In this document: positions 39,202-61,252 of the stretch, one piece after another
Layout: every line of letters starts with the position of its first letter
Position numbering within the stretch: position 1 is the stretch's first letter
Source: a virus
Lineage: Duplodnaviria; Caudoviricetes
IMG/VR virus record: IMGVR_UViG_3300028048_000047
Location: 64,001-128,000 of that record
DNA length: 64,000 nt
Strand: one strand, 5' to 3'
Position numbers and translations under genes: made by a program
Notes under the pieces: generated by a model
Seen by the model: the letters and a program-made list of their open reading frames with translations, nothing else
Databases searched by the model: none
What the model was told of the DNA's origin: nothing

Positions 39202-39618
39202 ATGGACATGAAAATTGAACCAATCAACACACATAATAGAAATAATGACCGTTTTGTTTTAACAATTGATGATGATAATTCTGTATATTATTATGATAAC
39301 CATAAAAGAGATGGGTTTGGATTATATGCAGGGGACGGTGAAACCAAGTTTAGTGAGGGGAAGATTGTTAAAAAGAATTTTGAAGATTTGTTTAGTAAAA
39401 TAAATGAATTATATAATGAGAACCAAGCATTAAAAAAGGGTAATGAATATCATCAGATTTTAAAAAAGAAATTCGATGCAGAGGAAAAAGAATTATTAGG
39501 TTTATATGAAGTTGCATTGAAAAGTGGGCATAAGGAAAATGCGAGAATGTATATGGATATAATTAATATATTGGGTGAGATATGGCAACATACATTTCAA
39601 GGTGAAGAATATGAATAG
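39202..39618 (+). CDS. RF…LLNxL family protein
   Basis: NDRF…KINELYNENQALK. Confidence 0.65.
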   Translation: MDMKIEPINTHNRNNDRFVLTIDDDNSVYYYDNHKRDGFGLYAGDGETKFSEGKIVKKNFEDLFSKINELYNENQALKKGNEYHQILKKKFDAEEKELLGLYEVALKSGHKENARMYMDIINILGEIWQHTFQGEEYE

Positions 39619-40048
39619 ATTTTTTCAACGAGGAGAAGTAATTGAAGACAAGTATAAAAATACAAAATTTGTTCTTAATAATGAGAATAAAGTAAAATAT
39701 ACTGTTGATTTACTTAATGAATTAAACAATGAGTTGGAAGTTAAAAAAAGAGAATATATTGATGTTGTAGAGGATTTGGCTCATTCTGAGAATACTATTG
39801 AAGATTTAGCGTCTGAATTATCTGATTTGGAAAATTTTGTATTATCACAATTTAATTCATATCAAAAGTATATTAAAGATAAAATAGAAATTTGTAATTA
39901 TATTCAAATGAAAATTAATAATATATCAACGGTTAAAATAAGTGAAAATAACGATGAAAATAATTATAATTATTCTTTATTAAGTATTAAAAAAGATTTA
40001 ATAAAAAAAGGATTATGGGAAACTTATGTTGCTGAAAGAGATATTTGA
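39611..40048 (+). CDS. RF…LLNxL family protein
   Basis: MNRF…VDLLNELNNE. Confidence 0.65.
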   Translation: MNRFFQRGEVIEDKYKNTKFVLNNENKVKYTVDLLNELNNELEVKKREYIDVVEDLAHSENTIEDLASELSDLENFVLSQFNSYQKYIKDKIEICNYIQMKINNISTVKISENNDENNYNYSLLSIKKDLIKKGLWETYVAERDI

Positions 40049-40261
40049 TTAAAGTGTGGTTAAAATTATGAGAATTAAATTTTATGAATTAATGTTGAAA
40101 CTTAATGAAATGAGTAATAATTATGATGATATTAACTTCAAAAAAGTTGATGTTTATACAAATAAAATTAATGGAATTGAATTTTTATTTTTCAAACATG
40201 AGAATGAAGTTTTTGAGGTTATTACAATTGATTCTTTGAATTGAAAAAGGTGTTATAATTT

Positions 40262-40570
40262 ATGGTTATTCATAGTGAAAATGAGAAAGGTGAAAAAGTG
40301 ATATGGGACGATAGTGGTAAGCAATGGAAGTATCCTGATGAAGAAGATGTGATTGACATTGGAGGTAAAAAGAAAAGAGTATGTTCAAAATGTAATAAAC
40401 CACGGATAGATATAAATGGTGTTGTTGATTGTGATTTTTGTTTACAAGGGTTAAGTGTGTGTGATTTGATTGATTATGCTTGTTGTGGACATAATGACCC
40501 TGATAGTGCATATATTAGTTTTAAAGATGGTCGAAGATGGATACTTGATAAAGAATGGAGTCGGAAGTAA
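40262..40570 (+). CDS. Cys-rich protein
   Basis: CSKC…CDFC…ACCGH. Confidence 0.65.
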   Translation: MVIHSENEKGEKVIWDDSGKQWKYPDEEDVIDIGGKKKRVCSKCNKPRIDINGVVDCDFCLQGLSVCDLIDYACCGHNDPDSAYISFKDGRRWILDKEWSRK

Positions 40571-41730
40571 AATGGGACGATGTAGTAGTTATATTATCAG
40601 ATTTAAATTTTGGAGTCTTGATAAATCTAAAAAAAAGAGAGCGAGTGTTCCTATGTTAACTATATTTAGTGATGGTAATTTAAATAAGTGTCATGGTCAG
40701 TTTGGTTCTTCTTATTATATGTTTAAGGATAAAGATACTATGATTGGAAATAAATATTTTTTTAAATAAAAAGAATTGAGTGAAAAGTTATGGTTGATGA
40801 TATAAGTCTTAAAGAAAATTCAATTAATTTTATTGATGGAGAAATTTTCTTAAAAACTGAAAATGGATTTGAAGAAGCAATATTGTATATGAGTATTGAT
40901 GATATTAAATATTTTGATATTGAAACAAGTGTACATATTTGTTTAAAAAAAGATTGGGAAAGAATACAAGAAGTAGGAGAAATTAGGGGATTTCCAAATT
41001 ATCAAGTTCAACCTGTAAAATATAGTATGGAATATGTTGAATCAATGTTAACTTGGGAGGATTAATTTTCATGGAAAGAAGAAAAAAGGTCACACTTAAA
41101 GATGTACTTGGTATAAATAAAGATTATAAACCCATTGAAGGACGGTTTAAGGAAATAATATCAACTCAAAAAATCATTGATACAACAAATAATATTGAAT
41201 ATGATGGATTGGTTGATACTGAATTATTAATTGTAATGAATCAGTTATCTGATGAAATTCTTTTCATGAAAAAATGTTTAAAAGAAGAATTACTTGAAGT
41301 AACATTAACTATGAATAATAATGAAGATGAATTAAATCATGAGTCTAATTATGTTAGGTTTCAAGTTTATTATAATAGAATTAAACGATTATGTGATAAG
41401 TGTAATGTCAAAATTGATGAAAAAGACTATTAGTTTGGAGGAAGATAATATTAAACAGATAGATATATTTAATTATATTTATGATAATTATGGATTTTAT
41501 GGTGTATTAGATGATGTTAAAGAAAAATTAGTTTATGGCGAAGTTACAAAAAGAGATGATGGATTATATAGTATATCCACAGGGGGGTTTTCAGATGATG
41601 AACATCTTATCCATAACTTAACACATCTATTGTGTCGATTTGGAAGTAATCATTATGTGGGTTATCTCCGAGGAGGATGTTTTTATTTTAGTGAAAAGAA
41701 GCATGATAACAATATTAAAATAATAAGGGT

Positions 41731-42042
41731 GTGATGATAATGGGTGAAAGATTTATTTATGAATATAGTGAAGAAACAAGCATGATTTTAATTAAAGATA
41801 CTTTTCGAGAAGAACCTAATACTAATTCCATATGTAATCCCAAAGGGATAGTGAGATGGTTAAATGAATTAAATAATGAAAATAAAAGATTAAGAAATAC
41901 AATTAATGTACAAACAATGGCGTTGTGTGAGTTTCATAATCGTGAATTAGCACAAGAAAAATGGGGGGAACATAGACCTGAATTTGATTTAGATACATAT
42001 TATGAAATATGTATGAATAAACTAAAAAAAGAGATGGACTAA
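41731..42042 (+). CDS. RF…LLNxL family protein
   Basis: GERF…WLNELNNENKRLR. Confidence 0.65.
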   Translation: MMIMGERFIYEYSEETSMILIKDTFREEPNTNSICNPKGIVRWLNELNNENKRLRNTINVQTMALCEFHNRELAQEKWGEHRPEFDLDTYYEICMNKLKKEMD

Positions 42043-42793
42043 TTGAATGGATAAAAATGAAATTGGAAAATTTAAGGTTAGGGTTATTATATGAAAATGT
42101 TATCTGATTTATTAATGGTGTTATTAAATAATTTAAGGATTGAAGATTTACCAGTAAATGTGCTTATTAATGATAAATATTACGATATTGATGAATTTTA
42201 TTTTGATAATGAGATTCATGAATATATAATGAAAGTTAGTGGGGGCATTGAATATAGTGTAAGAGGGGAATTAATTAATAAATGAGTAATTAATGGATTT
42301 AATGGAGGTTATTAATTTATGAGAAGTTGTCATTGTATATTGGCTGGAACAAAACATTGTGAAACTTGTGGAATGAATACAATAAATACTATACAGTACA
42401 CTTCACCAAGAAAAACAGTTAGTGTTACAACATCATTACCTGAATTCAATAATAAAACTGAAAAATATAAGTTATCTATGAACAATAATGGAAAAATTGT
42501 TTTAAAGGACGGTAAAGAGTTAAGTACAGAAGAATGTTGTAAATTATTAAATAAAATAGAAAATGAAAAAGAGAATTGGAAAATACACTATTGCGAATCA
42601 AGTAACATGGAAAGCATATTATCAATGGATTTACAGATTGTTCAAGAAGAATTATGGGATTTGGAAAAATTAATCTATGACTCATATATTATAAATGAAG
42701 ATATAATAAACTCAATGAAAAGATTGAAAGTAAAAATAGATGATTTAATTAACCATAAAAATAGAATATTTAGATAAATGAAGGCATGAAATA

Positions 42794-43036
42794 ATGAACG
42801 GAAGATTTATAAAAAAAGAATATGCTTATGATTGGTGGTTCATTTTTGATAAAGAACAAAAATATATTGAGGACATGAAGATTCCATTTCCTGATGTTGG
42901 AAATCTTGTTGCAATGTCCGAAGACCAAGTATTAACATTATTAAATAAATATGATATGTTGGAGAAAGAAGTTATAGAACTCAAAAAGGAGAATGAAAAA
43001 TTAAAAGAAAAAATTAATATAAATATGGGGGAGTAA
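42794..43036 (+). CDS. RF…LLNxL family protein
   Basis: MNGRF…LLNKY…ENEKLK. Confidence 0.65.
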   Translation: MNGRFIKKEYAYDWWFIFDKEQKYIEDMKIPFPDVGNLVAMSEDQVLTLLNKYDMLEKEVIELKKENEKLKEKININMGE

Positions 43037-43038
43037 GT

Positions 43039-44101: not shown

Positions 44102-44326
44102 TTGATGTATTTGGTTTTTAGGTGTGATTGTGGTAGGGTGTTATATGCACATGAAGGAAATAAAACAAGGAAGTGTAGTAAATGTAATAAAACATTGAAG
44201 GTAAGTAATCGTAGAATTCTTGCGAAAAGTGATAATATTGATGAAGTAAGGTTGTATATTCAAAAATTACAGAATGAGATATATCATAATACTGGTTTTA
44301 TAAAAGCAAGTGAATTAAAAAAATAG
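44102..44326 (+). CDS. DUF1922-like zinc-ribbon protein (Methanobacteriales type)
   Basis: YLVFRCDCGR.LY…TRKC.KC.K.LKV. Confidence 0.75.
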   Translation: MMYLVFRCDCGRVLYAHEGNKTRKCSKCNKTLKVSNRRILAKSDNIDEVRLYIQKLQNEIYHNTGFIKASELKK

Positions 44327-44750: not shown

Positions 44751-45707
44751 ATGACAAACACAGGAATACTAAACTTAAACAAAAGATTAAATAAAAATAT
44801 TAAAAAAGGATACAGGTATGAATATAAATACATACAAAACCACAATAAACGAACTTTATCAAGTGTTAATTTAGAAAAATTAATAAATGAAATAATAAAA
44901 CAAAAATTACCTTATGAAATAGTAGATGAAGAATTATATGAACAAACACTAAAACAAGAACAAGAAGATAATAAAAAATATGATATTCCATCATTCAAAA
45001 AACAAAAAAATAATACTGGAATAAAATATGTTATAAAAATTAAATGTGATGCTTGTAACAAAAAGTATCGTTATCTATATTCATATCATGGTATAAGAAT
45101 GAGTGGTATACTACTTGAAGACTTAAAAACTAAAATATTATCACAAAGATTACCTTATGAAATAGTAGATGAAGAATTATATGAACAAACACTAAAACAA
45201 GAACAAGAAGATAATAAAAAATATCATCCAAGAAAACCAACAAATACAGGAGTACAACATTTATCCAAAACAAAAACGAAAAAAACAAAAAAACAATATA
45301 AATATGTTTATATATACATCAATGATGAAGGAATAAAGAAAACTATAAATAGTGTTAATATCCATGAAGTTCACGATAAAATAATTAAAAAAGGATTACC
45401 TTGGAATATAATAAACAAAGAGTTATATGAACAAACACTAAAACAAGAACAAGAAGATAACAGTTCAATATCTAAAAGAATATTCCAAACAAACACAGGA
45501 ATACAATATATGTCCAAACATAAAAACAAACAATATAAAAAAGGATACAACTTTGTATATAAATACACAGATGAAAATAATAAAAAAAGAACATTAACCA
45601 GTATAAATTTAAAACAATTAAAAGAAAAAGTTCTATCAAAAAATATGGAATGGAATGTAATAAATCAAGAATTATACAATAAAATATTAAATGAGGAAGG
45701 GATTTAA
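44751..45707 (+). CDS. Protein of four tandem ~80-aa basic repeats (putative DNA-binding)
   Basis: TGI…K.Y.Y.Y…S.NL..L…LP(Y/W)…ELY x4. Confidence 0.75.
   Translation: MTNTGILNLNKRLNKNIKKGYRYEYKYIQNHNKRTLSSVNLEKLINEIIKQKLPYEIVDEELYEQTLKQEQEDNKKYDIPSFKKQKNNTGIKYVIKIKCDACNKKYRYLYSYHGIRMSGILLEDLKTKILSQRLPYEIVDEELYEQTLKQEQEDNKKYHPRKPTNTGVQHLSKTKTKKTKKQYKYVYIYINDEGIKKTINSVNIHEVHDKIIKKGLPWNIINKELYEQTLKQEQEDNSSISKRIFQTNTGIQYMSKHKNKQYKKGYNFVYKYTDENNKKRTLTSINLKQLKEKVLSKNMEWNVINQELYNKILNEEGI
44906..45224 (+). repeat. 76-bp exact direct repeat (44906-44981 and 45149-45224); partial third copy at 45423-45460
   Basis: attaccttatgaaatagtag…aaaaaatat. Confidence 0.9.
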
Positions 45708-45965: not shown

Positions 45966-46253
45966 ATGAATGGGGATAATAAAATGACTTGTGGGGAATG
46001 TAACTTCTCAGAGATAGATATGGACTCATTAAAAATAATATGTGAAAAAACAATGAAAGAAGTAGATTTAAATAAAAAGAAATGTGAAAACTTTAATTTA
46101 AGAGAAGATTTGTTAAAGGAAAGAGCTTGTTGTGGAGTATGTGAATATATGTTAATGGACGAATTTTGTGTATTTCATGATACATATACCATTCACACAA
46201 AATTATGTGATGATTTTGAGGCTTGTGAAGAATACATAAAAGGACAAATTTAA
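45966..46253 (+). CDS. Protein of two tandem 4-Cys modules
   Basis: CGEC…C…C and CGVC…C…C. Confidence 0.65.
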   Translation: MNGDNKMTCGECNFSEIDMDSLKIICEKTMKEVDLNKKKCENFNLREDLLKERACCGVCEYMLMDEFCVFHDTYTIHTKLCDDFEACEEYIKGQI

Positions 46254-46272: not shown

Positions 46273-47217
46273 ATTTTTAAAAAAATTGGATTATATAATC
46301 TTGAACCAAAAATTAATAATAGTGCAATGATGCAAGTAAGTTATTATCATAAAAAGCAAATGGATAAAGTAGAATTATATAATTCAAAGAAACATGATTC
46401 ATATGATAAGATATATGCGTTTAGTTTATTTGATTTTACTCCAAAAGATAAAGTAACTGATGATATGATATGTGGGGGTACTGGTTTTGATGTAAAATCA
46501 AGATTACCTACGGAGATAGAAGAATGTGATTTAGATTATAGCATATGTCCACAATGTGATTATAGTATAATATGGTTCAGTAGAGGTTGTATTAGAAATT
46601 GTCCGTTTTGTGTTGTTCGTGAAAAAGAAGGGAAAATACATCCAGTAAAACCAAAAAATTTAAATCCAAAAGGAAAATATGTTAAAGTTATGGACAATAA
46701 TTTTTTTGCAAATCCAAAATGGCGAGAAGCCGTGGATATGTTAAGAGTAAATAATTATAAAGTGGATATGCAAGGATTTGATATAAGAATATTTAATGAA
46801 GAACAAGGAGAAGCATTGACAAAATTAAAACATTACAAACAATTCAAATTTGCTTGGGATAATCCAAAAGATGACATTGATGATAAAATAGAATTATTAT
46901 TGAATTATATGAAACCATATAAATTAATGTGTTATATTTTAATTGGTTTTTGGAGTAATCCTGATGAAGATTTGTATCGTGTGGAACATTTAAAGGAAGA
47001 ATATAAAATACAACCATATGTAATGCCTTATAATCCTTTGGACGAATATCAAAGACAATTCAGGAATTATGTGAATAATAAAAAAGTATTTCATAAAGTA
47101 TCTTGGAAAGAATATTTACAGTATCATAAAGATTTGTATACAAAAAGGTTGAAAGGAGTGAATGATGTGATGGAATATTTAAAAAATAATAAATCATCTC
47201 AAAAAAAATTAATATAA
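46273..47217 (+). CDS. Radical SAM protein (probable ATT start upstream of 46327)
   Basis: SRGCIRNCPFC, DNNF; frame open from 46258; GGAGG at 46261. Confidence 0.85.
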   Translation: MFKKIGLYNLEPKINNSAMMQVSYYHKKQMDKVELYNSKKHDSYDKIYAFSLFDFTPKDKVTDDMICGGTGFDVKSRLPTEIEECDLDYSICPQCDYSIIWFSRGCIRNCPFCVVREKEGKIHPVKPKNLNPKGKYVKVMDNNFFANPKWREAVDMLRVNNYKVDMQGFDIRIFNEEQGEALTKLKHYKQFKFAWDNPKDDIDDKIELLLNYMKPYKLMCYILIGFWSNPDEDLYRVEHLKEEYKIQPYVMPYNPLDEYQRQFRNYVNNKKVFHKVSWKEYLQYHKDLYTKRLKGVNDVMEYLKNNKSSQKKLI

Positions 47218-48167: not shown

Positions 48168-48614
48168 GTGATAAAAATGATTAAGAACAGATTCCAAAAT
48201 AGTGATATGTGGATTCAAGATAGGAGTTGGAGTGGTGGAACATATTTTCTTGATGAACCAAGTGATGTCACTGCTTTATGTACATTATTAAATAGATTGG
48301 ACAATAAGATTATTCAATTGGAAGAACAAACAAATAAACTTGAAGAAGATTTGGATTATTATAAAAGTAGAATGATAAAGGGTGAACGATTTTTTATTAA
48401 TAACAGACAGATATGTGATAGTATGGGGTTCATTGAACCAATTCAAATTAATTCAACATATCATGGGGTTCAAGTTAAAAACTTATTAAACAAAAACTGG
48501 GAACAATTTAATGAACAAAAATGTTTAATACAAAGATTAAGTAATCAAAACAAAAAATTACTTAAAATTAATAAAGAGCTAAATAGGAGAATTGGAGAAG
48601 TTAAACATGGATAA
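48168..48614 (+). CDS. RF…LLNxL family protein (two domains)
   Basis: KNRF…LLNRL; GERF…LLNK. Confidence 0.65.
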   Translation: MIKMIKNRFQNSDMWIQDRSWSGGTYFLDEPSDVTALCTLLNRLDNKIIQLEEQTNKLEEDLDYYKSRMIKGERFFINNRQICDSMGFIEPIQINSTYHGVQVKNLLNKNWEQFNEQKCLIQRLSNQNKKLLKINKELNRRIGEVKHG

Positions 48615-49001
48615 AAAACATTGTGTACTTTGTGGGGGAAAAATTGGATTTCATTATTATACACTACCATTTGGATTTATTTGTTATGACTGTGGAAAAA
48701 AAATAATTGAACATTTACAAGTTGTGATTGAAAATGAATAAAAAAAAGGAGAGATGTGAATTAATTGAAGGAGGGTGGATAGGTGATGAAAAAGAACAAC
48801 ACTTTTCAATAATCTTTTATGACATTCACAAAAACCGTAAACATTTTTTTAGTTTTAAAGGAATAGGAAAATATAGTAAACATAATGAAAAAGAGTTACA
48901 TAACTTAACTGAATTAATTAATAAAGTATTAGCTGAAAATGAACAGTTAAAAAATGAAAGAGATATTGAAAATGGAATGAGAAATCTTTGAGTGGAATTG
49001 T

Positions 49002-49271
49002 ATGAGTAAAAAAAGATTTAGAACGGGTAACGGAATTTTTAAAGGAGATTATTTTTCAGAAGCAATAATTGATGAAAAAACTGGTGAAAGATATTATGAT
49101 GGAATAAAACCAAATTATGTGAGTTCAAAAGAAGTGTGTGAGTTATTAAATAATTATGAAAATAATTTAAATAACAAATATTTTAATATTGAAAATAGAA
49201 TCTCTAAAATGGAAGAGAAACTACAAGAAATAGAGTATTATTTTAAAAAATATCAAAAAGATATAAACTGA
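49002..49271 (+). CDS. MTEKRF family protein
   Basis: MSKKRF…VCELLN. Confidence 0.7.
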   Translation: MSKKRFRTGNGIFKGDYFSEAIIDEKTGERYYDGIKPNYVSSKEVCELLNNYENNLNNKYFNIENRISKMEEKLQEIEYYFKKYQKDIN

Positions 49272-49507
49272 AATTTGTTTTAATTGTTTAAATGGGAACA
49301 AAAAGGAAGGTGATTAAACATGATTGAAAATAGAGGATACCCTAAAACTACTGGGTATCTTAAAAAATCACATCATAAAAGTTTACAATCTGAAATTATT
49401 GATGGTAAGTGGATAAATAATAAAATAGAAGAATTACGAAGATTAGGATATTCTGATGAATATATTAATCAAGAATTAGGACATTTAGTTAATTGGAGGA
49501 TTTAAAA

Positions 49508-49816
49508 ATGAGTGAAAATAAACGATTTATAGGTTCAAGTGGAGGGGTCTATGACCAATATAAAAGTGATAGATTTGCTTGGTCTGAATGGGAAGAAATT
49601 ATTCAAATAATGAATAATTTAAATGAAAAAGCAATAGAAAGAAGTAAAGCATTATCTAAACTACAAAAAGTGAATGAAAAGTTAAAATCAAGGAATGGTA
49701 ATCTATTAGAAACATTAGCATTCCGTAGTAATCAGTTAGTATTATTAGAAGAATTAATTGATGATTTAGGTAGTGAAGAGATGGTAAAGCAGATGGGGGA
49801 GATTTTGAATGGGTGA
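49508..49816 (+). CDS. MTEKRF family protein
   Basis: MSENKRF…IMNNL…NEKLK. Confidence 0.7.
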   Translation: MSENKRFIGSSGGVYDQYKSDRFAWSEWEEIIQIMNNLNEKAIERSKALSKLQKVNEKLKSRNGNLLETLAFRSNQLVLLEELIDDLGSEEMVKQMGEILNG

Positions 49817-49968
49817 AACACAATTAAAAAAGTTTAGAGTTGAAAAAAGTAGTAGAATAAATGCTTTTTGCGTTACAAATGATAGGTATTCAGTAGTATT
49901 ATTAAAAGAGAATGAAGCGGGTGCTGTTTGTAACATGCTAAATAGAATGATAAAGGAGTTGGAATGAA

Positions 49969-50265
49969 ATGAATTCAAAGAGATATAAAGTGTACTCAGA
50001 TAGTTATAGTGCTGATATTGTTGATGAGATTACAGGTAATAATTATAATCAAATAACTGATATTGAAGATATATGTGATTTGTTAAACAACCAATATGAA
50101 CTGATTGAAAGAGTAAAAAAAGTAATGAAAGAGCATTATAATAACTCAAAAAAGGATTATGAACGAGCAGTTAAAGGAGGTATGCCATCATCAATATTAT
50201 ATGATGAAATGAGTCAAATTGAAGATATTATGAATGAAATTGGATTAGAATTAATTGGGGAATGA
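49969..50265 (+). CDS. MTEKRF family protein
   Basis: MNSKRY…ICDLLN. Confidence 0.7.
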   Translation: MNSKRYKVYSDSYSADIVDEITGNNYNQITDIEDICDLLNNQYELIERVKKVMKEHYNNSKKDYERAVKGGMPSSILYDEMSQIEDIMNEIGLELIGE

Positions 50266-50345: not shown

Positions 50346-50708
50346 ATGAGTATAAAGCGATTTGAGAATAGATTAGATAAATCTAATATTAAATTTAATA
50401 CACAAAATCCTGTATGGGATAATGAGAAAAAAGATGCTTTGAATGTGTTTAAAATGATTGATTTATTGAATGAATTATATGATGTGAATAAAAAGTTGGA
50501 AAATGATTTAACTGATTGTAAGAAGCTTAAAGGGAAGAGATTGAATAAAATTAGAAATCATCGTGCAGTTATTGAGGATTTAGGAGGTGCAATCCGAACA
50601 TATAAAGGACAAATTTCTCAGTTGAATGAAAAAATTGATAAAATAAAAGGAGTAATAGATGATGATGGTGTTTTAACGAAAAGGGAATTAAATGATATTT
50701 TGCGTTGA
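50346..50708 (+). CDS. MTEKRF family protein
   Basis: MSIKRF…WDNE…DLLNEL. Confidence 0.7.
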   Translation: MSIKRFENRLDKSNIKFNTQNPVWDNEKKDALNVFKMIDLLNELYDVNKKLENDLTDCKKLKGKRLNKIRNHRAVIEDLGGAIRTYKGQISQLNEKIDKIKGVIDDDGVLTKRELNDILR

Positions 50709-50791: not shown

Positions 50792-51103
50792 ATGGTATCT
50801 AAAAAAAGATTTAAGATGGAAACAATTGGAAATACAATGTTACCATTTATTGTTGATATTACTACTGCAAAAATGAAATCAAATACAATAACTACTTATC
50901 ATACATATGAAACACATAGAAAAGAAAAATGTTTAGAATTAGTTGATTTGTTAAATGAGCAACATGAAACAATCCAAAAATTAGAAGAATATTCGCAAAG
51001 GATAAATGAAACACTTCAATCATTTTCAAAAAGAGATTTAACAGATATTGAAAGAATATTTTTAAATAATCTTTGTAAGGAAATAGGTGTTGATTTAGAA
51101 TGA
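50792..51103 (+). CDS. MTEKRF family protein
   Basis: MVSKKRF…VDLLNE. Confidence 0.7.
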   Translation: MVSKKRFKMETIGNTMLPFIVDITTAKMKSNTITTYHTYETHRKEKCLELVDLLNEQHETIQKLEEYSQRINETLQSFSKRDLTDIERIFLNNLCKEIGVDLE

Positions 51104-51319: not shown

Positions 51320-51604
51320 ATGACTGAAAAAAGAATGGTGGATTGTTTGAGATATACTGGTGGGGCAAAATGTCATTTTACTGGTGAATTTTGTAATGAT
51401 GAGTATGCACAAACTTGTGAAGATTATAAGTCAGAAGATGGATTGTATGAGTGTCCCTATTGTAATTTGAAAGGATTAAAATTATTAGATTATGGGTCTG
51501 ATAATGTATGGGAATGCTTACGGTGTGGGGCAGAATTATGGTTTTGTGAAAGTGTCGGTGAGATGCAACAAAGATGTAGGGAAATTAGAGAAAAGAGAGA
51601 GTGA
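51320..51604 (+). CDS. MTEKR-start Cys-rich/zinc-ribbon protein
   Basis: CPYC…CLRC. Confidence 0.65.
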   Translation: MTEKRMVDCLRYTGGAKCHFTGEFCNDEYAQTCEDYKSEDGLYECPYCNLKGLKLLDYGSDNVWECLRCGAELWFCESVGEMQQRCREIREKRE

Positions 51605-52051: not shown

Positions 52052-53047
52052 AAATAAATATTGTGGTGGTGATGTGATGTTGGAATTTCCACATAAATTA
52101 AATATTAATAATAAAGGTATAGTTAAACGGTATAATACTGTTGAGAAAGGTGAGTCTAATTGGTGGTGGGTTTGGTATGATGGTGATTATCTACCTACAT
52201 CAACTGTTGTTCATAAATTAAATGATTTAACTGATGAGAATATTAAGTTACAAGCAGAGAATGAAGTGTTAAAATCAAGAATAAAAGAATTGACTTCACA
52301 GTTAACTGAAACTGGAAAAAGGGAGTAACTGATAAAAATGAATGGTCGGAGTTATAATAAGTTTATGATAATTTTATTGTTATTACTAATTATAGGTCGG
52401 ATAATATTATCTTATTTCAATATTAATTGGGTGAGAACTGTTAGTGCTTATGATTTTATAATAATTGTAATATTATTTTTTAACTGTGGTGTGTATTTTT
52501 CAATGGATTTCATCGATTAAGTAAAAAAAAGAATGGGTGAAAGAAAATAATGAATGGTGGTGAAAAAATTGGTTAATTCTATTGATGTTCCAGTTCTTAA
52601 AGTTGATAATATACCTGAAGAAGCATTAGATGAGATATATGAATTTCATGAAAAAATTAATAAAAAATATGAAGGTTATCGTATAGATAATGATTTAAAA
52701 ATGCAGTTAAATCAAGATGTTATTTTATTTAACCGTAAGATACAAGTAAAATATGATGATTGGCTTAAACCTACTGTGAAATTAATTGGAAATCTTGCGT
52801 ATCATAATGTAGAATGGGTATTGTCTGATGTATTACATGAGCATGAAAAATATTGTAATGAAAAACACGAAATAAAAAAACAATATACTCGAATTGAAGT
52901 TAATAATATGTTATTTGATTTACAGATAATTGATAGAATTCGTAATTATTCTTGTGTTGCATTACCTTATAGTTGTACAGAAGAATATAATAATAAGATA
53001 TTTCCACATGATGAAAACATAGAAGTGGAATGTAGATATTAATAAAA

Positions 53048-54735: not shown

Positions 54736-55197
54736 ATGAATGAAAAACGATATTCTCATGATGCTATTGTTATAGTAGACCATTTAAAAAAAGATTTAAT
54801 TTATATCGATGGTAAAGATGAATTATTGGAACTTGCAGAATATGTAGATATATTACAAGAAGAGAATCTGAAATTAAAATCATTTATTAAACAGAAACAA
54901 TGGACTGGTGGAATAGAAATGACTGAAAAACGATTTATAATTGATGTTGAAGAAACAACACAAGAAAATGCTTTATTTGAAAATGGTAAATTCGTTTGTT
55001 TTGAAGATGATACTGATGAGTATTTGAAAAAAATAAATGAAATGTCAGATGAAATTGTACAGTTAAAACAATTCCAAGAACAAGTTACAAGTGTTATTGA
55101 AAGTAAAATGGGTGATAATGTATGCAATGATTACAAAATGGAAGTGTTGAAAGAGATATGGGACGAATTAGAATTAGATGAAGTGTGGTTTGAATGA
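54736..55197 (+). CDS. In-frame fusion of two MTEKRF cassettes (second start at 54919)
   Basis: MNEKRY…ENLKLK…WTGGIE-MTEKRF. Confidence 0.7.
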   Translation: MNEKRYSHDAIVIVDHLKKDLIYIDGKDELLELAEYVDILQEENLKLKSFIKQKQWTGGIEMTEKRFIIDVEETTQENALFENGKFVCFEDDTDEYLKKINEMSDEIVQLKQFQEQVTSVIESKMGDNVCNDYKMEVLKEIWDELELDEVWFE

Positions 55198-55803: not shown

Positions 55804-55917
55804 AAACGATTTAAAGAAGTTATTTTCACATGGATAGATAGTGGTGGTGAATATCATTATGAAAGAAGAATTGTTAGGGATATTAAAAAAGAAAAGGAGT
55901 TGAAAAAAGATGATTGA
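55796..55917 (+). pseudogene. MTEKRF cassette with 1-nt deletion in A run
   Basis: atgactgaaaacgattt (4 A, not 5); adding one A gives a 40-aa ORF ending on the next ATG. Confidence 0.65.
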
Positions 55918-56221
55918 AAATGCACGATTCCTATTTGTCATTGACAATGGAGAACCAACATTTTATGATTTAAGTAAAAAAGGCAAAACAATGGATATGA
56001 ATGAAACAGAAGATATGTTAAATGAGTTAAACAATGAGAATAATGAATTAAAACAATTCCAAGAAAAAGTATTTGATTGGATTGATAAAGAAATTTCTCA
56101 AAATGAAGAAGCAATTGAATGGGGAGAAAAGCAAGGTGCAGATGTGGGTGCAATGGGTTTTTATACAAATATGCTTAAAATGTTCCAAAAGGATTTTGCA
56201 GATGGACAATACAATAAATAG
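55910..56221 (+). CDS. MTEKRF family protein
   Basis: MIENARF…MLNELNNENNELKQFQE. Confidence 0.7.
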   Translation: MIENARFLFVIDNGEPTFYDLSKKGKTMDMNETEDMLNELNNENNELKQFQEKVFDWIDKEISQNEEAIEWGEKQGADVGAMGFYTNMLKMFQKDFADGQYNK

Positions 56222-56253: not shown

Positions 56254-56622
56254 ATGAATGATGAGAGATTTTGTATTTATAGTAAATCAACTGATAGTAA
56301 TGTGTATGATAGAGTTGAAGACCAATATTATAGTTGGGATACTATTGTGGATTTATTAAATCATATAATTCCAAATGATGCAGATGTTTTAGAGTTGTTG
56401 GATATTCATATTGAAAATAATAAAACATTAAAAGAAAAACAATTGGATTTTATTGTTAATTTATTATTTGATATTCGTTGTTATAGTGATGTGCATTATA
56501 ATGAATTATTGGGTGGTGAATTAGCAAGAGCAGAAGCGTTAGGGTTTAATGTTGAAGATTCAAAAAATTGGGATTATGATGAAGAAAGTTATGAATTTTG
56601 GAAAAAGAAGTTACAAGAGTGA
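56254..56622 (+). CDS. MTEKRF family protein
   Basis: MNDERF…VDLLN. Confidence 0.7.
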   Translation: MNDERFCIYSKSTDSNVYDRVEDQYYSWDTIVDLLNHIIPNDADVLELLDIHIENNKTLKEKQLDFIVNLLFDIRCYSDVHYNELLGGELARAEALGFNVEDSKNWDYDEESYEFWKKKLQE

Positions 56623-56644
56623 GTGGACGGGAGGTGTTGGAAAA

Positions 56645-57028
56645 ATGAATTATGAAGAAAAATACACTTGTAAAAAAATTGAAAACCCAGTAACAAAAGA
56701 AGTAAATAATTATATACAATATAATGATACCACTATATTAAAATTAAATTCAATAACTGATTGTAAGAATGTATGTCAATTATTGAATAGACTTGATGAT
56801 ATAATTGAGGATTATAAATCTTCAATTGAATTAAAAGAAGAGGGGATGGTGTGTAAAAATGATATATGGGATACTTGGGAGTTGATTAAACCAGTTGCAA
56901 ATATGGTTTTATGGAATTGGGGATTAAAATTAGTAGGTGCAAATGATTCTTATAATCTTATTTGTTTTGATACTGAAAAATTTGAAAAAAAATTAATTGA
57001 AACAATTGAAATTAATAAAATGGTTTAA
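56645..57028 (+). CDS. LLNxL family protein
   Basis: GGAGGTG RBS; VCQLLNRL. Confidence 0.65.
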   Translation: MNYEEKYTCKKIENPVTKEVNNYIQYNDTTILKLNSITDCKNVCQLLNRLDDIIEDYKSSIELKEEGMVCKNDIWDTWELIKPVANMVLWNWGLKLVGANDSYNLICFDTEKFEKKLIETIEINKMV

Positions 57029-57285: not shown

Positions 57286-57338
57286 TTTAAAACGAAACAT
57301 TTATATGTGATGATTTACTAATAATGTAATAGTAAGTC
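57286..57338 (+). promoter_or_regulatory. Archaeal promoter (TTTAAAACGAAA class)
   Basis: Near-duplicate of 2197-2249. Confidence 0.7.
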
Positions 57339-57493
57339 AAAAGAATAAAATAAATTTTAAGGAGTGAAAGAAATGACTAAAAAAGTGATATTTGAAATGG
57401 ATGTATTTGAATTGATTGAGTGGATAAATAATAATCCGTTAACTATGGCTTATTTATATGCTCTTGAAAGAAATGGTATTTTAGGTGGAAAGA

Positions 57494-57757
57494 ATGACTG
57501 AAAATAAACGATTTAAAGGTGGACAAGGGGAAGTTAGTGTTGTCAGGGAGAATTTAATATTTAAATTATTATGTTTATTTGCAGAAGAGAATCAAGAATA
57601 TAGGGAAGAAAATACTCATTTAAAGTTAGAGAATGAGAAGTTAAAAAATGTTATAGTATTTGCTTATACACTTATGAGTCTGAACACTATTTCAGATGAA
57701 GAATATTCTGAGTTTTATGAGTTATGTGAAAATATGGGGGTGAGTTTGAATGACTGA
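57494..57757 (+). CDS. Chimeric MTENKRF family protein
   Basis: N-half matches 55465 gene; C-half matches 57750 gene. Confidence 0.75.
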   Translation: MTENKRFKGGQGEVSVVRENLIFKLLCLFAEENQEYREENTHLKLENEKLKNVIVFAYTLMSLNTISDEEYSEFYELCENMGVSLND

Positions 57758-58082
57758 AAAATGGATTATTAAAAATGGAGAAATTGTAGATACAACCAAT
57801 AATATAACCTTTGATTCATTCATGGAAATCATAATAGTGCTAAACGGACAATCAAGACAATTAACTCAAATGTCAAAAGAAAATAAGAAGTTAAAATCAA
57901 TTTGTCAAGACCATCGTGACCATGCAATTGATTTTAAAGCAGATTGTGTAAGATTAGAAAAAGAGAATAAAGAGTTAAAAAATATTATATTATTTGCTTA
58001 TACACTTATGAGTAAAAACACTATTTCAGATGAGGAATATTTTGAGTTTTATGAGTTATGTGAAAAAGTAATAAAACAATAG
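57750..58082 (+). CDS. MTEK family protein
   Basis: 8-nt ATGACTGA overlap; ENKELK. Confidence 0.7.
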   Translation: MTEKWIIKNGEIVDTTNNITFDSFMEIIIVLNGQSRQLTQMSKENKKLKSICQDHRDHAIDFKADCVRLEKENKELKNIILFAYTLMSKNTISDEEYFEFYELCEKVIKQ

Positions 58083-58093
58083 GATTTGTAAGA

Positions 58094-58645
58094 ATGATTG
58101 ATTATAAAAGTATAGCCGAATTTTATTTAGAAATTTGTAGTAGAATATCAAAAACAATTTATGAAGCAGAACAAAATGAAAAAACAAAGGAAGATGCTAA
58201 AAAAGATTTTGATAGTATGTATTGGAGTTTTGATAGAGCAAAAAGTAGAGCGCATGATGTTTTACAAATGCACAAATATTGGAATGAAAAAGACTTTGAA
58301 CACTATGGTTTAGAACAATTATCCAGTACAAGACATCGTATAGAACATTTTTTAGAAGATTGTTTACTTACTTACCCTGATTGTTGTTATACTTTTGATA
58401 AATATGATGATATAATTATAGATTATTATAAACCTATTAGATTAAATGGGGGTCAAGAACATCATGAAAAATGGAAAAAATATTATAAATTGAACCATAA
58501 AAGGATTATGATTAATTACGGGTTAGTTAGGGATTTGAAAGGAGCATATGATTATGTGAAAGATGATGAGAAACACTTAATTGATGAAATGATGAAATTA
58601 TGTAAGAAATTAGAAGGTTATGATGAAGAAATGGCAAACGATTGA
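58094..58645 (+). CDS. Hypothetical protein
   Basis: 183-aa ORF. Confidence 0.7.
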   Translation: MIDYKSIAEFYLEICSRISKTIYEAEQNEKTKEDAKKDFDSMYWSFDRAKSRAHDVLQMHKYWNEKDFEHYGLEQLSSTRHRIEHFLEDCLLTYPDCCYTFDKYDDIIIDYYKPIRLNGGQEHHEKWKKYYKLNHKRIMINYGLVRDLKGAYDYVKDDEKHLIDEMMKLCKKLEGYDEEMAND

Positions 58646-58663
58646 AAAGGAGTTACAATAGGA

Positions 58664-58918
58664 ATGACTAAAAAAAGATTTGAGATAAATAATCTTGTAA
58701 AAAAAGGCACTATGAGTTTTTGGGATAATGAAAGCAAAGCAATTTTAAATGCAAGTCATACACTTGATTTATTGAATGAATTATCAGAAAAGAATGATGG
58801 ATTAAAAAAAGACTTGTTTGAAACAAGAAAAGATTATTTGATTGAAACTGCCGACATCTCCGATAAATTATATTTGGACGAGATGATTGAAAATGAACGA
58901 AAGGAGATATTTAAATGA
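58664..58918 (+). CDS. MTKKRF family protein
   Basis: WDNE…LDLLNEL. Confidence 0.7.
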   Translation: MTKKRFEINNLVKKGTMSFWDNESKAILNASHTLDLLNELSEKNDGLKKDLFETRKDYLIETADISDKLYLDEMIENERKEIFK

Positions 58919-59040
58919 AGGAATGTTGTGCAAATTGTCAATATTTCAGATTATTAAACGATTTTGAAATGTATTGTACTAAAAAGGAGAGTTATACATT
59001 TCATTTGAATATTTGTGAAAAATGGAAAATGATGAGATAA
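58915..59040 (+). CDS. Small 4-Cys protein (41 aa; not in ORF track)
   Basis: CCANCQY…C…CEKW; ATGA overlap. Confidence 0.55.
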   Translation: MKECCANCQYFRLLNDFEMYCTKKESYTFHLNICEKWKMMR

Positions 59041-59045
59041 AAATA

Positions 59046-59177
59046 ATGACTGAAAAAAGATTTACATTTAATAGTGATACTGTTGCAACAAATTTAAAAA
59101 CACCTATTGTTTATGATAATAAAATAATGAATATATGGGAAGTATTAGAAAAATTAAAAATGGAGTTGAAACTATGA
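59046..59177 (+). CDS. Short MTEKRF family protein (43 aa; not in ORF track)
   Basis: Ends in ATGA overlap with the MTDKP start at 59174. Confidence 0.6.
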   Translation: MTEKRFTFNSDTVATNLKTPIVYDNKIMNIWEVLEKLKMELKL

Positions 59178-59355
59178 CTGATAAACCAATTGTTCCTCCC
59201 GAACAATTTCTATATACTCTAATCAATCAGATGATGGATAAATATGAATCTCATCCATTAACAAGAGCTGTATTTGAAATGGGCTATGTTAAAGAAGGTT
59301 ATAGGTTAGATTGGAATAAAAGATTAGATGAAAATGGAGAATGGAGTTGTAAAAA

Positions 59356-59631
59356 ATGACTGAAAATAAACGATTTAAATATTCATATTCATTGGAAAAA
59401 GTATATGACTGCGATACTTTCAATGGAGAAACAACAGAAAGTTACGGGACATTTGAATGTTGTGATATGTTAAATCAGTTAAATGATGAGAATGAGCAAT
59501 TAAAATCTGAAAACAGAAATCTTAAAATCACTATTAGTGCAAGAGATGCATTAATTGAAGTTTGCGAGGAAAAATTCAGGGAATTAGGATTCATTATAAC
59601 TGTTGATGATAATGGATATGTGATAGAATGA
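59356..59631 (+). CDS. MTENKRF family protein
   Basis: MLNQLNDENEQLK. Confidence 0.7.
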   Translation: MTENKRFKYSYSLEKVYDCDTFNGETTESYGTFECCDMLNQLNDENEQLKSENRNLKITISARDALIEVCEEKFRELGFIITVDDNGYVIE

Positions 59632-59732
59632 CTGAATATTATATATATATATATGGATACAGAAGATAAATTACCTGCTATTCTCCCAAAATATAATTAT
59701 TATTGTACCTACAAGAATGAGGAGGAAGATGG

Positions 59733-60209
59733 ATGACTGAAAAACGATTTTATGTTGATAAAAATGGGGATTTTAGAGATACCAAAACTGGTAATATTAT
59801 AGTTGATTTTGGTTATTCCTTTAATGGAATGGACTGCAAAATGATTTTAGATTTGTTAAATAAGTTAAATGATGAATGCGAGTTTCTTGAAATTGAAAAT
59901 GAATCATTGGAAGATGGTGCAACAAAATATGCAGAATTATATCATAAATCATTAAAAGAGAATGAGGAGTTAAAACAACAATTAAAAACAAGAGTAATTG
60001 TTAATAAACAGTATGAAGAACTCCAAAGACTTAAAAAAGAGAATGAACAGTTAAAAAAAGTATTAGGTGCAATATTACTTGAAGTGAGAAGAGATATTTC
60101 AAATACGAATCAAACTGGTGAAATAAAAGTATTTATCAATCCTAATAGTTTTGATTTAATTAGTGAAGTATTAAAGAAGTATGGAGCATTAAAGGGATGG
60201 TATGAATGA
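59733..60209 (+). CDS. MTEKRF family protein
   Basis: LDLLNKL…ENEELK…ENEQLK. Confidence 0.75.
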   Translation: MTEKRFYVDKNGDFRDTKTGNIIVDFGYSFNGMDCKMILDLLNKLNDECEFLEIENESLEDGATKYAELYHKSLKENEELKQQLKTRVIVNKQYEELQRLKKENEQLKKVLGAILLEVRRDISNTNQTGEIKVFINPNSFDLISEVLKKYGALKGWYE

Positions 60210-60511
60210 CTAAAAAACGATTTATTTTAGTTGAATATGTTAATAAAGGATTGTTTATTCAAGATAATGCTAATGATGAAACACAATATTTTCAAGGGAG
60301 TAAAGCATCATTAGAAAAAGTTGTTAATTTGTTGAATAATTTAAATGATGAGAATGAGCAGTTAAGACAACGAAACACTAACCAATACAATCAATTAACT
60401 GAATTATGGGAAATAATTGAAGAAGAAAACTGGGAAAAACTAATTGCAATGAAGAAACAATTAAAAGAAGATGAGGAACGATTACAAAAAGAATGGGGGT
60501 GTTATGAATGA
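60206..60511 (+). CDS. MTKKRF family protein
   Basis: VNLLNNLNDENEQLR. Confidence 0.75.
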   Translation: MTKKRFILVEYVNKGLFIQDNANDETQYFQGSKASLEKVVNLLNNLNDENEQLRQRNTNQYNQLTELWEIIEEENWEKLIAMKKQLKEDEERLQKEWGCYE

Positions 60512-60729
60512 CTGAGATAGCATTAAGTTGTATTGATTGGGCTATCCTATTATTTGAAATGTTAATTGCTATGATTATCTTTGCAATCGTGAAAGGATGG
60601 TATGATAGTAGAAGATGGGAAAATCATATTTATCAAATATTGGAGGAATATCGTGCTAAATATGGGGTAGATAGTGGTTGTGAACTGTTATTGTATAGGA
60701 AAACAAATAATGAGGTGGAAGATGACTGA
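60508..60729 (+). CDS. MTE-start membrane protein
   Basis: TM segment; junction motif at both ends. Confidence 0.6.
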   Translation: MTEIALSCIDWAILLFEMLIAMIIFAIVKGWYDSRRWENHIYQILEEYRAKYGVDSGCELLLYRKTNNEVEDD

Positions 60730-61252
60730 AAAACGATTTAAGATGAAAAAACTTGAATATGAATCCTATTTTATTGATTCTCAACAAGAGTATGTTGATG
60801 AAGATGAGCCGAATTTTAAGATTGATGGTGAAAAAACATTGTCAGATTCACAAATTCTTGATTTATTAAACGAGAATGAACAGTTAAAATCTGAAATAAA
60901 AGATTTGAATGATGTACTTACAAGATACGAAGAAAAGGATTTACAAAAAATGAAGAAGGATACTCATATGGATGATGAATTAAGTTCTGATGAATTTTTT
61001 AAGAAATACATGGACGAAATGGACAAAGTGGGTTATGAAGTATTTGGGATTCGTTATATGGATGATTATGTTAATCTTTTCCCAAGTGAAGATGAACAAG
61101 CAGTTCGTGATAGTTTAACAAGATTTGCAGAATCATTCCATAAAGGACATAATGCCCTACCTGTTATAATATTGGTTAATAAATATTATATTAAATCATG
61201 GTTAGAAACTGGTAATGTTAAGGACGGTTATGGTAATTTGGTTAAATTATAA
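60722..61252 (+). CDS. MTEKRF family protein
   Basis: LDLLNENEQLK; start 60722 rather than 60674. Confidence 0.75.
   Translation: MTEKRFKMKKLEYESYFIDSQQEYVDEDEPNFKIDGEKTLSDSQILDLLNENEQLKSEIKDLNDVLTRYEEKDLQKMKKDTHMDDELSSDEFFKKYMDEMDKVGYEVFGIRYMDDYVNLFPSEDEQAVRDSLTRFAESFHKGHNALPVIILVNKYYIKSWLETGNVKDGYGNLVKL

Follow-up and report, generated by a model that had tools for sequence, protein, structure and literature searches.

The dense array and its members

The window analysed here is a 64,000-nucleotide stretch (positions 64,001 to 128,000) of the viral record IMGVR_UViG_3300028048_000047, and much of it is occupied by a dense array of small genes encoding one family of hypervariable proteins. 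The 195,936-bp genome is that of a tailed archaeal virus of ruminant-gut samples; it encodes terminase, portal, tape-measure and baseplate J proteins, as well as a PCNA sliding clamp (30838..31578, + strand; PF00705, E=5.6e-16), an archaeal-type replication marker. The structural module spans genome positions 4-61 kb, and the array lies outside it. The large terminase is 54% identical to that of a virus with Methanobacteriales as its recorded host, and members of the small-protein family are also carried by Methanobrevibacter MAG contigs; the host is probably Methanobrevibacter. The viral DNA was present in bovine, sheep and goat gut runs.

A first profile built from 12 seed members and then iterated recovered 26 window ORFs. 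With the genome-wide profile (E<1e-5) we found 27 members in the window, 25 of them within 39,202-61,252, and 68 ORFs with 80 domain matches in the whole genome, all on the + strand. The controls gave 0-1 matches in each of five residue-shuffled ORF sets and a single match in a reversed ORF set. An earlier note, made from the letters of the window, had described about 30 hypervariable ORFs ending at 61,252; the profile and the shuffled controls confirm the family and show it to be larger, and the proposed end does not hold, as members continue to the window end (63739..63987, E=1.6e-6) and for about 29 kb beyond it. The dense array thus covers 54 kb (genome 103.2-156.8 kb), with 39 more members downstream of the last one in the window. 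At 68 copies the family occupies 22 kb, or 11% of the genome, which to our knowledge is extreme for a prokaryotic virus; eight other viral records (81-155 kb) hold 18, 17, 7, 7, 5, 4, 4 and 0 copies.

The array is operon-like, its genes following one another head to tail with a median gap of 3.5 nt. The reading frame is open in all 68 members, and a Shine-Dalgarno-like site precedes 79% of the family starts versus 16% of all ATGs. The encoded proteins are small (median 103 aa), without membrane segments, and acidic, with a median pI of 5.05 (below 6 in 81% of members) and a median net charge of -5. Small size, acidity and arms-race-like turnover would fit the anti-defence or host-binding adaptors suggested in the earlier note.

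Two members lie apart from the array, one of 92 aa (22099..22377, profile E=1.1e-7) and one with two complete domains at aa 3-48 and 68-123 (27199..27618, E=5.9e-15, two domain matches). The latter had already been noticed as an outlier and is a true two-domain member, while the other proposed outlier, at 15666, lacks statistical support (E=0.31). The dense array opens at 39202..39618 (E=3.4e-11) and continues with 39575..40048 (E=5.5e-7), 41053..41433 (domain at aa 29-78, E=3.7e-7), 41731..42042 (E=2.1e-14) and 42794..43036 (E=8.2e-10). The gene at 48168..48614, previously read as two-domain, is a member (E=1.3e-11), but its second domain-like stretch is visible only by eye. Downstream of it are 48728..48991 (E=8.5e-9), 49002..49271 (E=1.4e-7), 49493..49816 (E=1.4e-11), the short 49809..49967 (52 aa, E=4.2e-7), 49969..50265 (E=7.1e-13), 50346..50708 (E=3.5e-8), 50792..51103 (E=2.9e-11) and 52074..52328 (E=7.2e-13). 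The member at 54736..55197 (E=1.7e-11) has a weak first domain and an internal MTEKRF that opens the second at an exact 18-mer (54919), and thus reads as an in-frame cassette fusion. Further members are 55910..56221 (E=1.6e-13), 56254..56622 (E=1.3e-8), 56549..57028 (domain at aa 51-96, E=8.4e-7), 57750..58082 (E=4.9e-8), 58664..58918 (E=7.1e-13) and a short, marginal one at 59046..59177 (E=0.011), which starts with a one-mismatch copy of the junction motif (MTEKRF...). Canonical members are found at 59356..59631 (E=1.1e-16), 59733..60209 (E=2.3e-17) and 60206..60511 (E=6.9e-16), followed by 60674..61252 (E=8.4e-13), whose true start is likely the exact 18-mer at 60722. There is weak evidence that members are expressed: contigs of one metatranscriptome library, which possibly contains DNA, match exactly (0 mismatches) over 48701-48962 at the member 48728..48991 and over 58454-58989 at 58664..58918.

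A predicted small folded head on a leucine zipper

The common domain comprises about 60 aa, with an MTEKRF strand, an I-x-D strand, a variable loop and a LLNxLxxENEQLK helix; the head (about 35 aa) consists of the two strands, the loop and a third short strand. The alignment reproduces the anchors reported in the earlier note, namely (K/N)RF, I-x-D and LLNxL leading into ENEQLK. In LLN the Asn never varies, and the R, F, D and two Leu are conserved in at least 90% of members. Paralogs otherwise only 20-40% identical keep these structural anchor residues, and so do hundreds of metagenomic homologs. The loop between the anchors varies in length and sequence and the tails are mostly unrelated, in agreement with what had been described before; the exchangeable tail may continue the zipper, form a Cys-rich module or a small globular piece, or be absent.

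The AlphaFold2 model of 49969..50265, obtained with a 93-sequence alignment, gave a confident common fold (pLDDT 86.5) of three short strands (6-10, 15-19 and 25-26) and a long helix (29-69), with a second helix at 74-90. LLNxL-xxENEQLK forms the first heptads of the helix in the canonical pattern of dimer zippers, with hydrophobic a/d positions, Asn at a (68%), Leu at d (84%), Glu at g and Lys at e. The interpretation offered earlier, a conserved scaffold with a variable surface that oligomerises through a coiled coil, is in part supported. Within the common fold, conservation is confined to a few residues, namely the strand anchors and the zipper core at a/d, and all other positions vary; oligomerisation is suggested by the heptad pattern just described.

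No match to the family was accepted in Pfam, PHROGs or PDB sequences, and Foldseek, VIA-align and ESM Atlas returned no fold match, so that the earlier statement that no named family can be assigned holds. Foldseek aligned WW domains only locally, over 23-28 residues at E>0.5; a WW domain is recognised by two signature Trp and a Pro in an antiparallel sheet of three strands (about 35 aa), and the family consensus is without conserved Trp or Pro. The bZIP families of Pfam (PF00170/PF07716) matched two of the 68 members, below the cut-off and in the zipper only, and similarly sub-threshold matches were obtained to scaffolding, ZapB and DivIVA families. The small-protein family is undescribed; beyond the earlier note we found its 68 copies, its rare-codon junctions conserved at the DNA level, and its head/tail shuffling.

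Conserved DNA junctions and head/tail shuffling

Conservation at the DNA level, rare codons included, is seen in two stretches, in this genome as well as in other viruses. One is the start, ATGACTGAAAAACGATTT, the other the zipper core, GAGAATGAGCAGTTAAAA. The start junction reads ATGACTGA(AAAACGATTT), with TGA in both other reading frames, and the stop codon of the upstream gene falls inside it in 35 of 56 cases. The Arg of KRF is encoded by CGA at 33 of 58 sites, versus 9.5% genome-wide (p=3e-19), and the Gln of ENEQLK by CAG at 22 of 24, versus 16%. Exact GAGAATGAGCAGTTAAAA was found at 38 of 50 ENEQLK sites in the loci of other viruses, where 0.5% is expected. With up to two mismatches, each 18-mer has 8 matches in the window against 0.01-0.02 expected, and the genome contains 54 copies of ATGACTGAAAA where 0.23 would be expected. 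The exact sites of the latter extend beyond the profile-defined family (25 of the 54), and the MTEK(RF) start also heads unrelated genes, encoding Cys-rich mini-proteins, membrane peptides, a WDGH-domain fusion (E=9e-30) and, with a weak match (E=0.0045), an HNH-like protein. This DNA-level conservation could also stem from recent spread or gene conversion instead of selection for recombination sites, and the start motif could in part be a favoured translation-initiation context.

Similarity in the head does not go with similarity in the tail. In this genome, 9 pairs of members are similar in the head and 25 in the tail, with an overlap of 0. Among 328 proteins, 510 pairs are similar in the head, and in 288 of these the tails show no similarity; of 47 head clusters, 17 combine with two or more types of tail. 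The head of 59733..60209 (aa 1-48) is 91% nucleotide-identical to that of the member at window +75486, the tails being different, and this +75486 member has its tail in common with 55910..56221 (76% nucleotide identity over 171 nt). Likewise, the zipper-core/tail segment of 60674..61252 recurs in the member at window +77202, and the head of 60206..60511 is found with other tails in metagenomic proteins (2 tail clusters). The chimera breakpoints are located in the zipper core.

Among strains, the array is collinear and 97-99% identical in other animals. One cassette (57372..57748, + strand) is missing from two sheep-gut strains (two runs); it holds a chimeric gene (57485-57757) with a head like that of 55426 (87% nucleotide match) and a tail like that of 57750 (90%). 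Both sides of the deletion joint, 57371->57749, fall in AATGACT (7 letters in common; side 255), and this one-cassette indel is thus bounded by the start motif. A between-strain sample of 40 SNPs included 13 synonymous and 19 non-synonymous changes, a small sample that suggests only mild purifying selection.

The window also encodes a predicted ERF-superfamily single-strand annealing recombinase (17476..18183, + strand; PF04404, E=1.1e-13), which matches its profile with 51.9 bits (cut-off 25) over 149 of 153 positions and is a candidate shuffling enzyme. Besides, an ERCC4/XPF-type structure-specific nuclease with HhH motifs is found at 34045..34704 (+ strand; PF02732, E=3.1e-10, plus HhH families).

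Interpretation and comparison with known systems

We propose, with a probability of roughly 0.55, that recombination has diversified a set of acidic, dimeric binder proteins in this family, that these bind or inhibit host proteins, and that the conserved motifs serve as crossovers. Since their specificity heptad is the same, the members would form parallel dimers and perhaps also heterodimers, and each dimer would place two variable heads side by side. Both DNA motifs may be the sites at which the ERF annealing recombinase of the virus makes its crossovers. Exchange there would join heads to new tails, produce tandem fusions in frame, change the copy number and capture unrelated genes. The products would then bind or inhibit host proteins during takeover or counter-defence and be diversified by an arms race; we infer such a host-takeover or anti-defence role for the family.

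The presence of MTEK(RF) on unrelated proteins could point instead to a targeting tag, a conserved N-terminus that, like the capsid-targeting sequence of T4 internal proteins, sends unrelated payloads into the virion or to a common hub, to arrive together with the DNA as a pre-made counter-defence arsenal. We regard this as unlikely: the conserved unit is mostly a whole folded domain with its zipper, not a 10-residue peptide, and even the rare codons of the tag are kept, more than a peptide signal calls for. In addition, the array is more than 40 kb away from the head genes instead of adjoining them, neither a prohead protease nor a cleavage motif was identified, and membrane peptides are improbable as capsid cargo. 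Coiled-coil-rich proteins with weak matches to scaffolding, ZapB and DivIVA families might also help to build or assemble the virion or a replication compartment (as scaffold, decoration or cytoskeleton-like proteins), but structural proteins are normally single-copy and conserved, whereas here heads and tails are hypervariable, copy number varies and the array falls outside the structural module; this reading is very improbable.

The mild bias between synonymous and non-synonymous changes and the DNA-level conservation above the protein's needs are, on the other hand, what a selfish or neutral array would display. In such an array, unequal crossing-over promoted by the motifs would duplicate the motifs themselves, and the majority of ORFs would be dispensable by-products without a specific function; the 0-18 copies in relatives versus 68 here and the cassette indel between strains also agree with it. 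Such an origin is nevertheless unlikely, since none of the 68 frames is interrupted and ribosome-binding sites precede most of them, the anchors persist across the diverged paralogs and metagenomic homologs, the array stays collinear in strains of other animals, and a virus whose genome size is limited by its capsid should pay for carrying 22 kb without use. Quite improbable, too, is a large repertoire of dimeric transcription factors (bZIP- or ribbon-repressor-like) whose strands read DNA. The recognition element directly N-terminal to a putative parallel zipper, the K-R in the first strand and the weak bZIP or HALZ matches in one or two members speak for it; however, the heads are acidic (median net charge -2, pI 5.0, with a median of -5 for whole proteins) and without a basic region, the Pfam bZIP matches stay below cut-offs and within the zipper, and 68 regulators are far beyond the plausible need of a 196-kb genome.

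Gene accordions are known from other viruses, such as the K3L amplification in poxviruses, the MGF families of ASFV and the anti-CRISPR paralogs at the genome ends of Sulfolobus rudiviruses, and known viral multigene families are linked to antagonism of host defence. The array described here resembles them in its tandem expansion of paralogs and in a copy number that differs between close relatives; it differs in protein fold and in exchanging modules at defined DNA motifs, not only by duplication and point mutation. With the bZIP/GCN4 zippers (PF00170, PF07716), the family shares the Leu at d, the buried Asn at a, the Glu(g)/Lys(e) pairs and a recognition element directly N-terminal to the zipper, but the place of the basic region is taken by an acidic three-stranded mini-sheet, and DNA binding by its members is unlikely.

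The T-even internal proteins, which have only a capsid-targeting sequence in common and counter host restriction in T4 (PMC3012670), are similar in carrying a short conserved N-terminus on very diverse small proteins, as is seen here for the 25 of 54 junction-bearing ORFs outside the family. Here, in contrast, the conserved unit is an entire domain of some 60 aa with a fold of its own; its conservation extends to the DNA, and the array is not adjacent to the head genes. ERF-type recombinases have been shown to recombine short and diverged homology efficiently (PMC3945230), and the relaxed recombination described for the phage Rad52-like proteins Red-beta, RecT and Erf would have a counterpart in the ERF-family protein predicted here for an archaeal virus; the mosaics are bordered by short conserved homology, as that model predicts. 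The homologies of 7-40 nt, with a 7-nt overlap at the indel, are shorter than the hundreds of bases assayed in that study.

A close parallel is offered by the hyperplastic regions of T4-type phages, in which PeSLs, mobile regulatory cassettes of a promoter and a stem-loop, flank small, mostly unknown early-type genes (PMC2839356, PMC4122927). In both systems a short repeated DNA motif flanks the ORFs (here ATGACTGAAAA) and delimits the indels and replacements that separate close strains, as with 57372-57748, and the shuffling is attributed to recombination between its copies. Unlike a PeSL, which combines an early promoter with a terminator stem-loop, the motif described here is the junction where ribosome site, start codon and the first codons of a gene meet (ATGACTGA), and each of the two other frames has a stop in it. 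The array further differs in having a second junction inside the gene, at the zipper core, in filling most of its cassettes with one protein family, and in the archaeal host of the virus.

Family size and predicted fold

A seed profile of 12 members picked by eye retrieved 22 ORFs of the window in the first round and 26 at convergence, and a profile retrained on the whole genome of 195,936 bp recovered 68 ORFs with 80 domain hits, on the + strand throughout; at E<1e-5, this genome-wide profile places 27 members in the window. The controls returned 0, 1, 0, 0 and 0 matches for residue-shuffled ORF sets and 1 match for reversed sequences. These sequence comparisons indicate that the family is real, and they confirm the multi-copy family that an earlier note had recognized by eye, while its proposed outlier at 15666 and its second domain in member 48168 (members are named by the ORF start in window coordinates) received no statistical support in the profile search. 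The start of the span that the note had drawn, 39202-61252, holds, but its end does not, as the dense array runs to ~92,750 in window numbering.

The note had also suggested searching metagenomes with a profile of the members. In an independent check against 1.84 billion representative proteins, the profile of a 57-member alignment gave 214 matches at E<=1e-10 and 5,694 at E<=1e-3, the weaker of which will include unrelated coiled coils. A set of 5.8 billion proteins yielded 913 matches at E<=1e-5, the sole name among them being 'hypothetical protein [Methanobrevibacter sp.]'.

Column statistics and alignments show a first strand with conserved E/N, K, R (90%) and F (87%), and a second strand with an I/V/F position followed by x-D (84%). 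The loop after it varies among members in both length and sequence, and the helix then starts with I/L-V/C-x-L-L-N (96-100%)-x-L-x-x-E-N-E-Q-L-K. Hydrophobic residues spaced by three or four occupy profile positions 34, 38, 41, 45, 48, 52 and 55; at position 45, which is an 'a' position, 68% of the members have Asn, with Glu (g) before it and Leu (d) and Lys (e) after it. In GCN4-type zippers, a buried Asn at 'a' together with g/e salt bridges specifies parallel dimers, and the products of this family would likewise form parallel dimers, possibly heterodimers. The tails measure 0 to 112 aa, and no membrane segments were found in the family proteins.

With a 93-sequence alignment, AlphaFold2 produced a confident model of member 49969-50265 (mean pLDDT 86.5), with strands at residues 6-10, 15-19 and 25-26 and helices at 29-69 and 74-90. 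A shallower alignment of 57 sequences had left the head at pLDDT 50-63, and the deeper one settled it. Pfam and PHROGs (10 members) and Pfam (all 68 members and five metagenomic homologs) returned only coiled-coil matches, all of them below threshold. The best match of the family profile to PDB sequences (E 0.016) covers the zipper only, and the ESM Atlas holds unnamed clusters only. Foldseek against PDB and BFVD and a wide VIA-align search gave no match at E<=0.001, with a best Z of 6.9 for helices only; the sole structural echo of the head, in WW domains, is local over 23-28 residues and not significant. Longer fused forms reach 282 aa without an informative domain, tblastn with one member retrieved nothing from GenBank phages, and no description of the family was found in the literature searched. 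The earlier finding that the proteins could not be assigned to a named family thus stands, and neither of the two outcomes that would have counted against the note's reading was obtained, as the members share a predicted fold and match no characterised domain. The proteins form a previously undescribed family of viral origin.

The array and its virus

The window covers bases 64,001-128,000 of a single record of 195,936 bp with 26% G+C and a strong G-over-C skew, whose genes lie essentially all on the + strand. The products of the record include a large terminase, portal, tape-measure protein and baseplate J, as well as PCNA, an RlaP-type nucleotidyltransferase and DNA methylases, and by this gene set it is a tailed virus with replication features of archaeal type. 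Within its first 39 kb, the window carries nucleotide-metabolism and recombination genes, among them radical SAM, QueC-like, SurE, ParB-like, dCTP deaminase-like and thymidylate-synthase-like genes, together with an ERF recombinase and an ERCC4/XPF-type nuclease.

Several lines of comparison point to Methanobrevibacter as the probable host. The closest relative of the large terminase (54% identity) belongs to a GenBank virus with recorded host Methanobacteriales, and contigs of Methanobrevibacter MAGs are matched both by an 18-base family motif and by the family profile. In addition, 11 of 201 genomes of the host family of Methanobrevibacter hold 1-13 clustered copies, a patchy pattern such as would be expected of proviruses, and DNA of the virus is present in bovine, sheep and goat gut sequencing runs.

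Other features of the record were also observed. It starts within a 27-base tandem repeat (AGGTATGGTGGGAGTTATTGGTGCAAT, genome position 1-60), possibly a terminal repeat or the end of an assembly. DNA units of ~200 bp, 80-87% identical to one another, form a second repeat family in the last 28 kb of the virus (genome 168-195 kb, window numbering ~104,000-131,400), where they lie dispersed among the small genes and apparently mostly in intergenic DNA. A cluster at window 8175-13473 encodes a radical SAM protein, an N6/N4 DNA methylase, two ParB-N-like proteins, SurE and a QueC-like protein, and is possibly a DNA base-modification module of the 7-deazaguanine type. A thymidylate-synthase-like gene (21234-21959) accompanies two dCTP-deaminase/dUTPase-like genes (24395-24904 and 35984-36520).

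The dense array occupies 54 kb from window position 39,202 (genome 103.2-156.8 kb), far past the window end, and members make up 64 of its ~167 ORFs of at least 50 aa. The array is 89% coding with a median ORF-to-ORF gap of 3.5 nt, and a Shine-Dalgarno-like site precedes 79% of member starts against 16% of all ATGs. Profile scores climb along it, from 24-48 bits in its 5' part (39-50 kb) to 45-66 bits past the window end (+72 to +87 kb; a plus sign marks positions in window numbering that lie past this end), so that the most canonical copies lie downstream. The members cover 21.9 kb in total. Eight other viral records (81-155 kb), several of them complete by CheckV or with terminal repeats, and some with portal proteins 50-73% identical to that of the 68-copy virus, hold 18, 17, 7, 7, 5, 4, 4 and 0 copies, clustered wherever present. 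Judged against these records, the 68 copies are an extreme, lineage-specific expansion, which helps to explain the large genome.

Several other genes are interspersed. A 318-aa protein (44751-45707) consists of three to four repeats of ~80 aa and weakly matches a Tn916-integrase/AP2-type DNA-binding domain (E=0.0019); 63430-63735 encodes a relative with a single repeat. A CxxxCxxC motif of the radical SAM type occurs in a 296-aa ORF (46327-47217) that has no Pfam match at E<=0.01, and a clear radical SAM protein is encoded at 8175-8795. Many Cys-rich, zinc-ribbon-like mini-proteins occur, at 40262-40570, 44102-44326, 45966-46253, 51320-51604 and 61543-61779. Two of them are headed by the MTEK junction, and the one at 51320 weakly matches the Lar restriction-alleviation family (E=0.0076).

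Contigs from one bovine metatranscriptome library match several array genes, including 48728, 58664 and 59356, with 0 mismatches, although such matches to the assembled contigs of one library are not proof of transcription. The 40 listed strain SNPs comprise 13 synonymous, 19 non-synonymous and 8 intergenic changes, i.e., in this small sample, fewer non-synonymous changes than the ~3:1 neutral expectation.

Conserved junctions and cassette exchange

Two stretches of member DNA, the start junction at the MTEKRF gene start and the zipper core encoding ENEQLK, are conserved at the nucleotide level beyond what the protein needs. In the start junction, 33 of 58 members encode the Arg of KRF by CGA, a codon that accounts for 9.5% of Arg codons genome-wide (p=3e-19). 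The motif ATGACTGAAAAACGATTT with at most 2 mismatches occurs 8 times in the window (0.02 expected) and ATGACTGAAAA 54 times in the genome (0.23 expected). The zipper core is encoded by the rare codons GAG and CAG (CAG 22/24 vs 16% genome-wide; GAG 18/24 vs 22%), and in loci of other viruses, retrieved by the start motif and not by the zipper-core motif, exact GAGAATGAGCAGTTAAAA is found at 38 of 50 ENEQLK sites, where ~0.5% would be expected. All three conserved rare codons of the two junctions are G/C-richer synonyms, which would be consistent with GC-biased repair at recombination hot spots or with improved annealing.

The start junction ATGACTGA contains TGA in both other frames, and therefore any cassette can follow any other, irrespective of frame. 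Among the ORFs upstream of junction-bearing genes (n=56), 24 stop at +1 (ATGA) and 11 at +5 (CTGA). An upstream gene in the same frame and without a stop would give a tandem fusion carrying an internal MTEKRF, and such fusions are present at 54,919 and in many metagenomic homologs.

Heads and tails are exchanged in a modular way, and whole cassettes turn over. Within the genome, 9 pairs of members share a head and 25 share a tail, while none share both. Member +75486 matches 59733 in its head (91% nucleotide identity over 143 nt, up to and including LLNxLND) and 55910 in its tail (76% over 171 nt, starting at the ENxxLK motif). In +77202, the head common to +92033 (87%) and the core and tail common to 60674 (86%) overlap exactly on KENEQLK, and 57485 joins a head like that of 55426 (87%) to a tail like that of 57750 (90%). 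Among 328 proteins pooled from the 196-kb genome, other loci and metagenomic homologs, tail similarity was undetectable in 288 of 510 head-similar pairs and head similarity was missing in 384 of 576 tail-similar pairs, and 17 of 47 head clusters carried more than one tail type.

In related strains, represented by contigs from two sheep-gut runs of different studies, the array is collinear at ~97-99% identity, and both strains are missing the segment 57,372-57,748, which contains the chimeric gene 57485. The joint of this indel falls within AATGACT on both sides, and the difference amounts to one complete cassette gained or lost at the start junction. Runs that covered only small shares of the stretch were left out of all claims, and many short-sided 'joints' were disregarded as cross-matches between motif copies. 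The start junction also heads unrelated genes, i.e., Cys-rich mini-proteins, two membrane peptides, a protein with weak HNH-like similarity (E=0.0045) and a head-plus-LLN module fused to a WDGH domain (PF25311, E=9e-30). An ERF-family annealing protein is encoded by the virus according to a profile match, and this enzyme would recombine DNA at the two junctions. ERF, Red-beta and RecT recombinases drive phage mosaic formation at short, diverged homology (PMC3945230).

Possible role of the array

We propose that the family products bind or inhibit host factors, by analogy with small acidic early phage proteins, the T-even internal proteins (PMC3012670), the T4 hyperplastic regions (PMC2839356, PMC4122927) and viral multigene families. 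This role ranks above those of a targeting tag, DNA-binding regulators, selfish DNA or structural proteins. The acidity of the proteins, with a median pI of 5.05, 81% of them below pI 6 and a median head net charge of -2, led us to set aside the DNA-binding reading.

Beyond the binding of host factors, the array might be a dedicated combinatorial diversification system for the host-interaction proteins of the virus, with junctions kept for that purpose, continually active ERF/XPF-type machinery, and heterodimers, a reading to which we give a probability of roughly one in five. The frame-independent stop/start adaptor and the zipper-core junction would then be continual substrates for the viral ERF and XPF-type machinery. 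Through the two junctions together, heads and tails could be combined anew, cassettes could fuse, be gained or be lost, and foreign genes could be picked up, and the shared zipper heptad would permit heterodimers among the products, thereby multiplying the repertoire.

Methane in ruminant and human guts is produced mainly by Methanobrevibacter, whose viruses are almost unstudied; we know of no account of how these viruses take over or evade their hosts. The 196-kb genome is among the largest archaeal virus genomes seen, and the family is probably central to the biology of these viruses, because it takes up 11% of the genome and recurs in many related viruses. Modular evolution is an old idea in phage biology that is rarely so cleanly visible, and the array offers an unusually clear natural case of it at defined linker sequences, with a start junction that ends the upstream gene in any frame, an in-gene crossover point and a virus-encoded annealing recombinase. 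For protein engineers, the small head-plus-zipper scaffold may serve as a minimal display scaffold. If the diversification reading is true, the array would be similar in function to an integron or an antigenic-variation locus, here in an archaeal virus.
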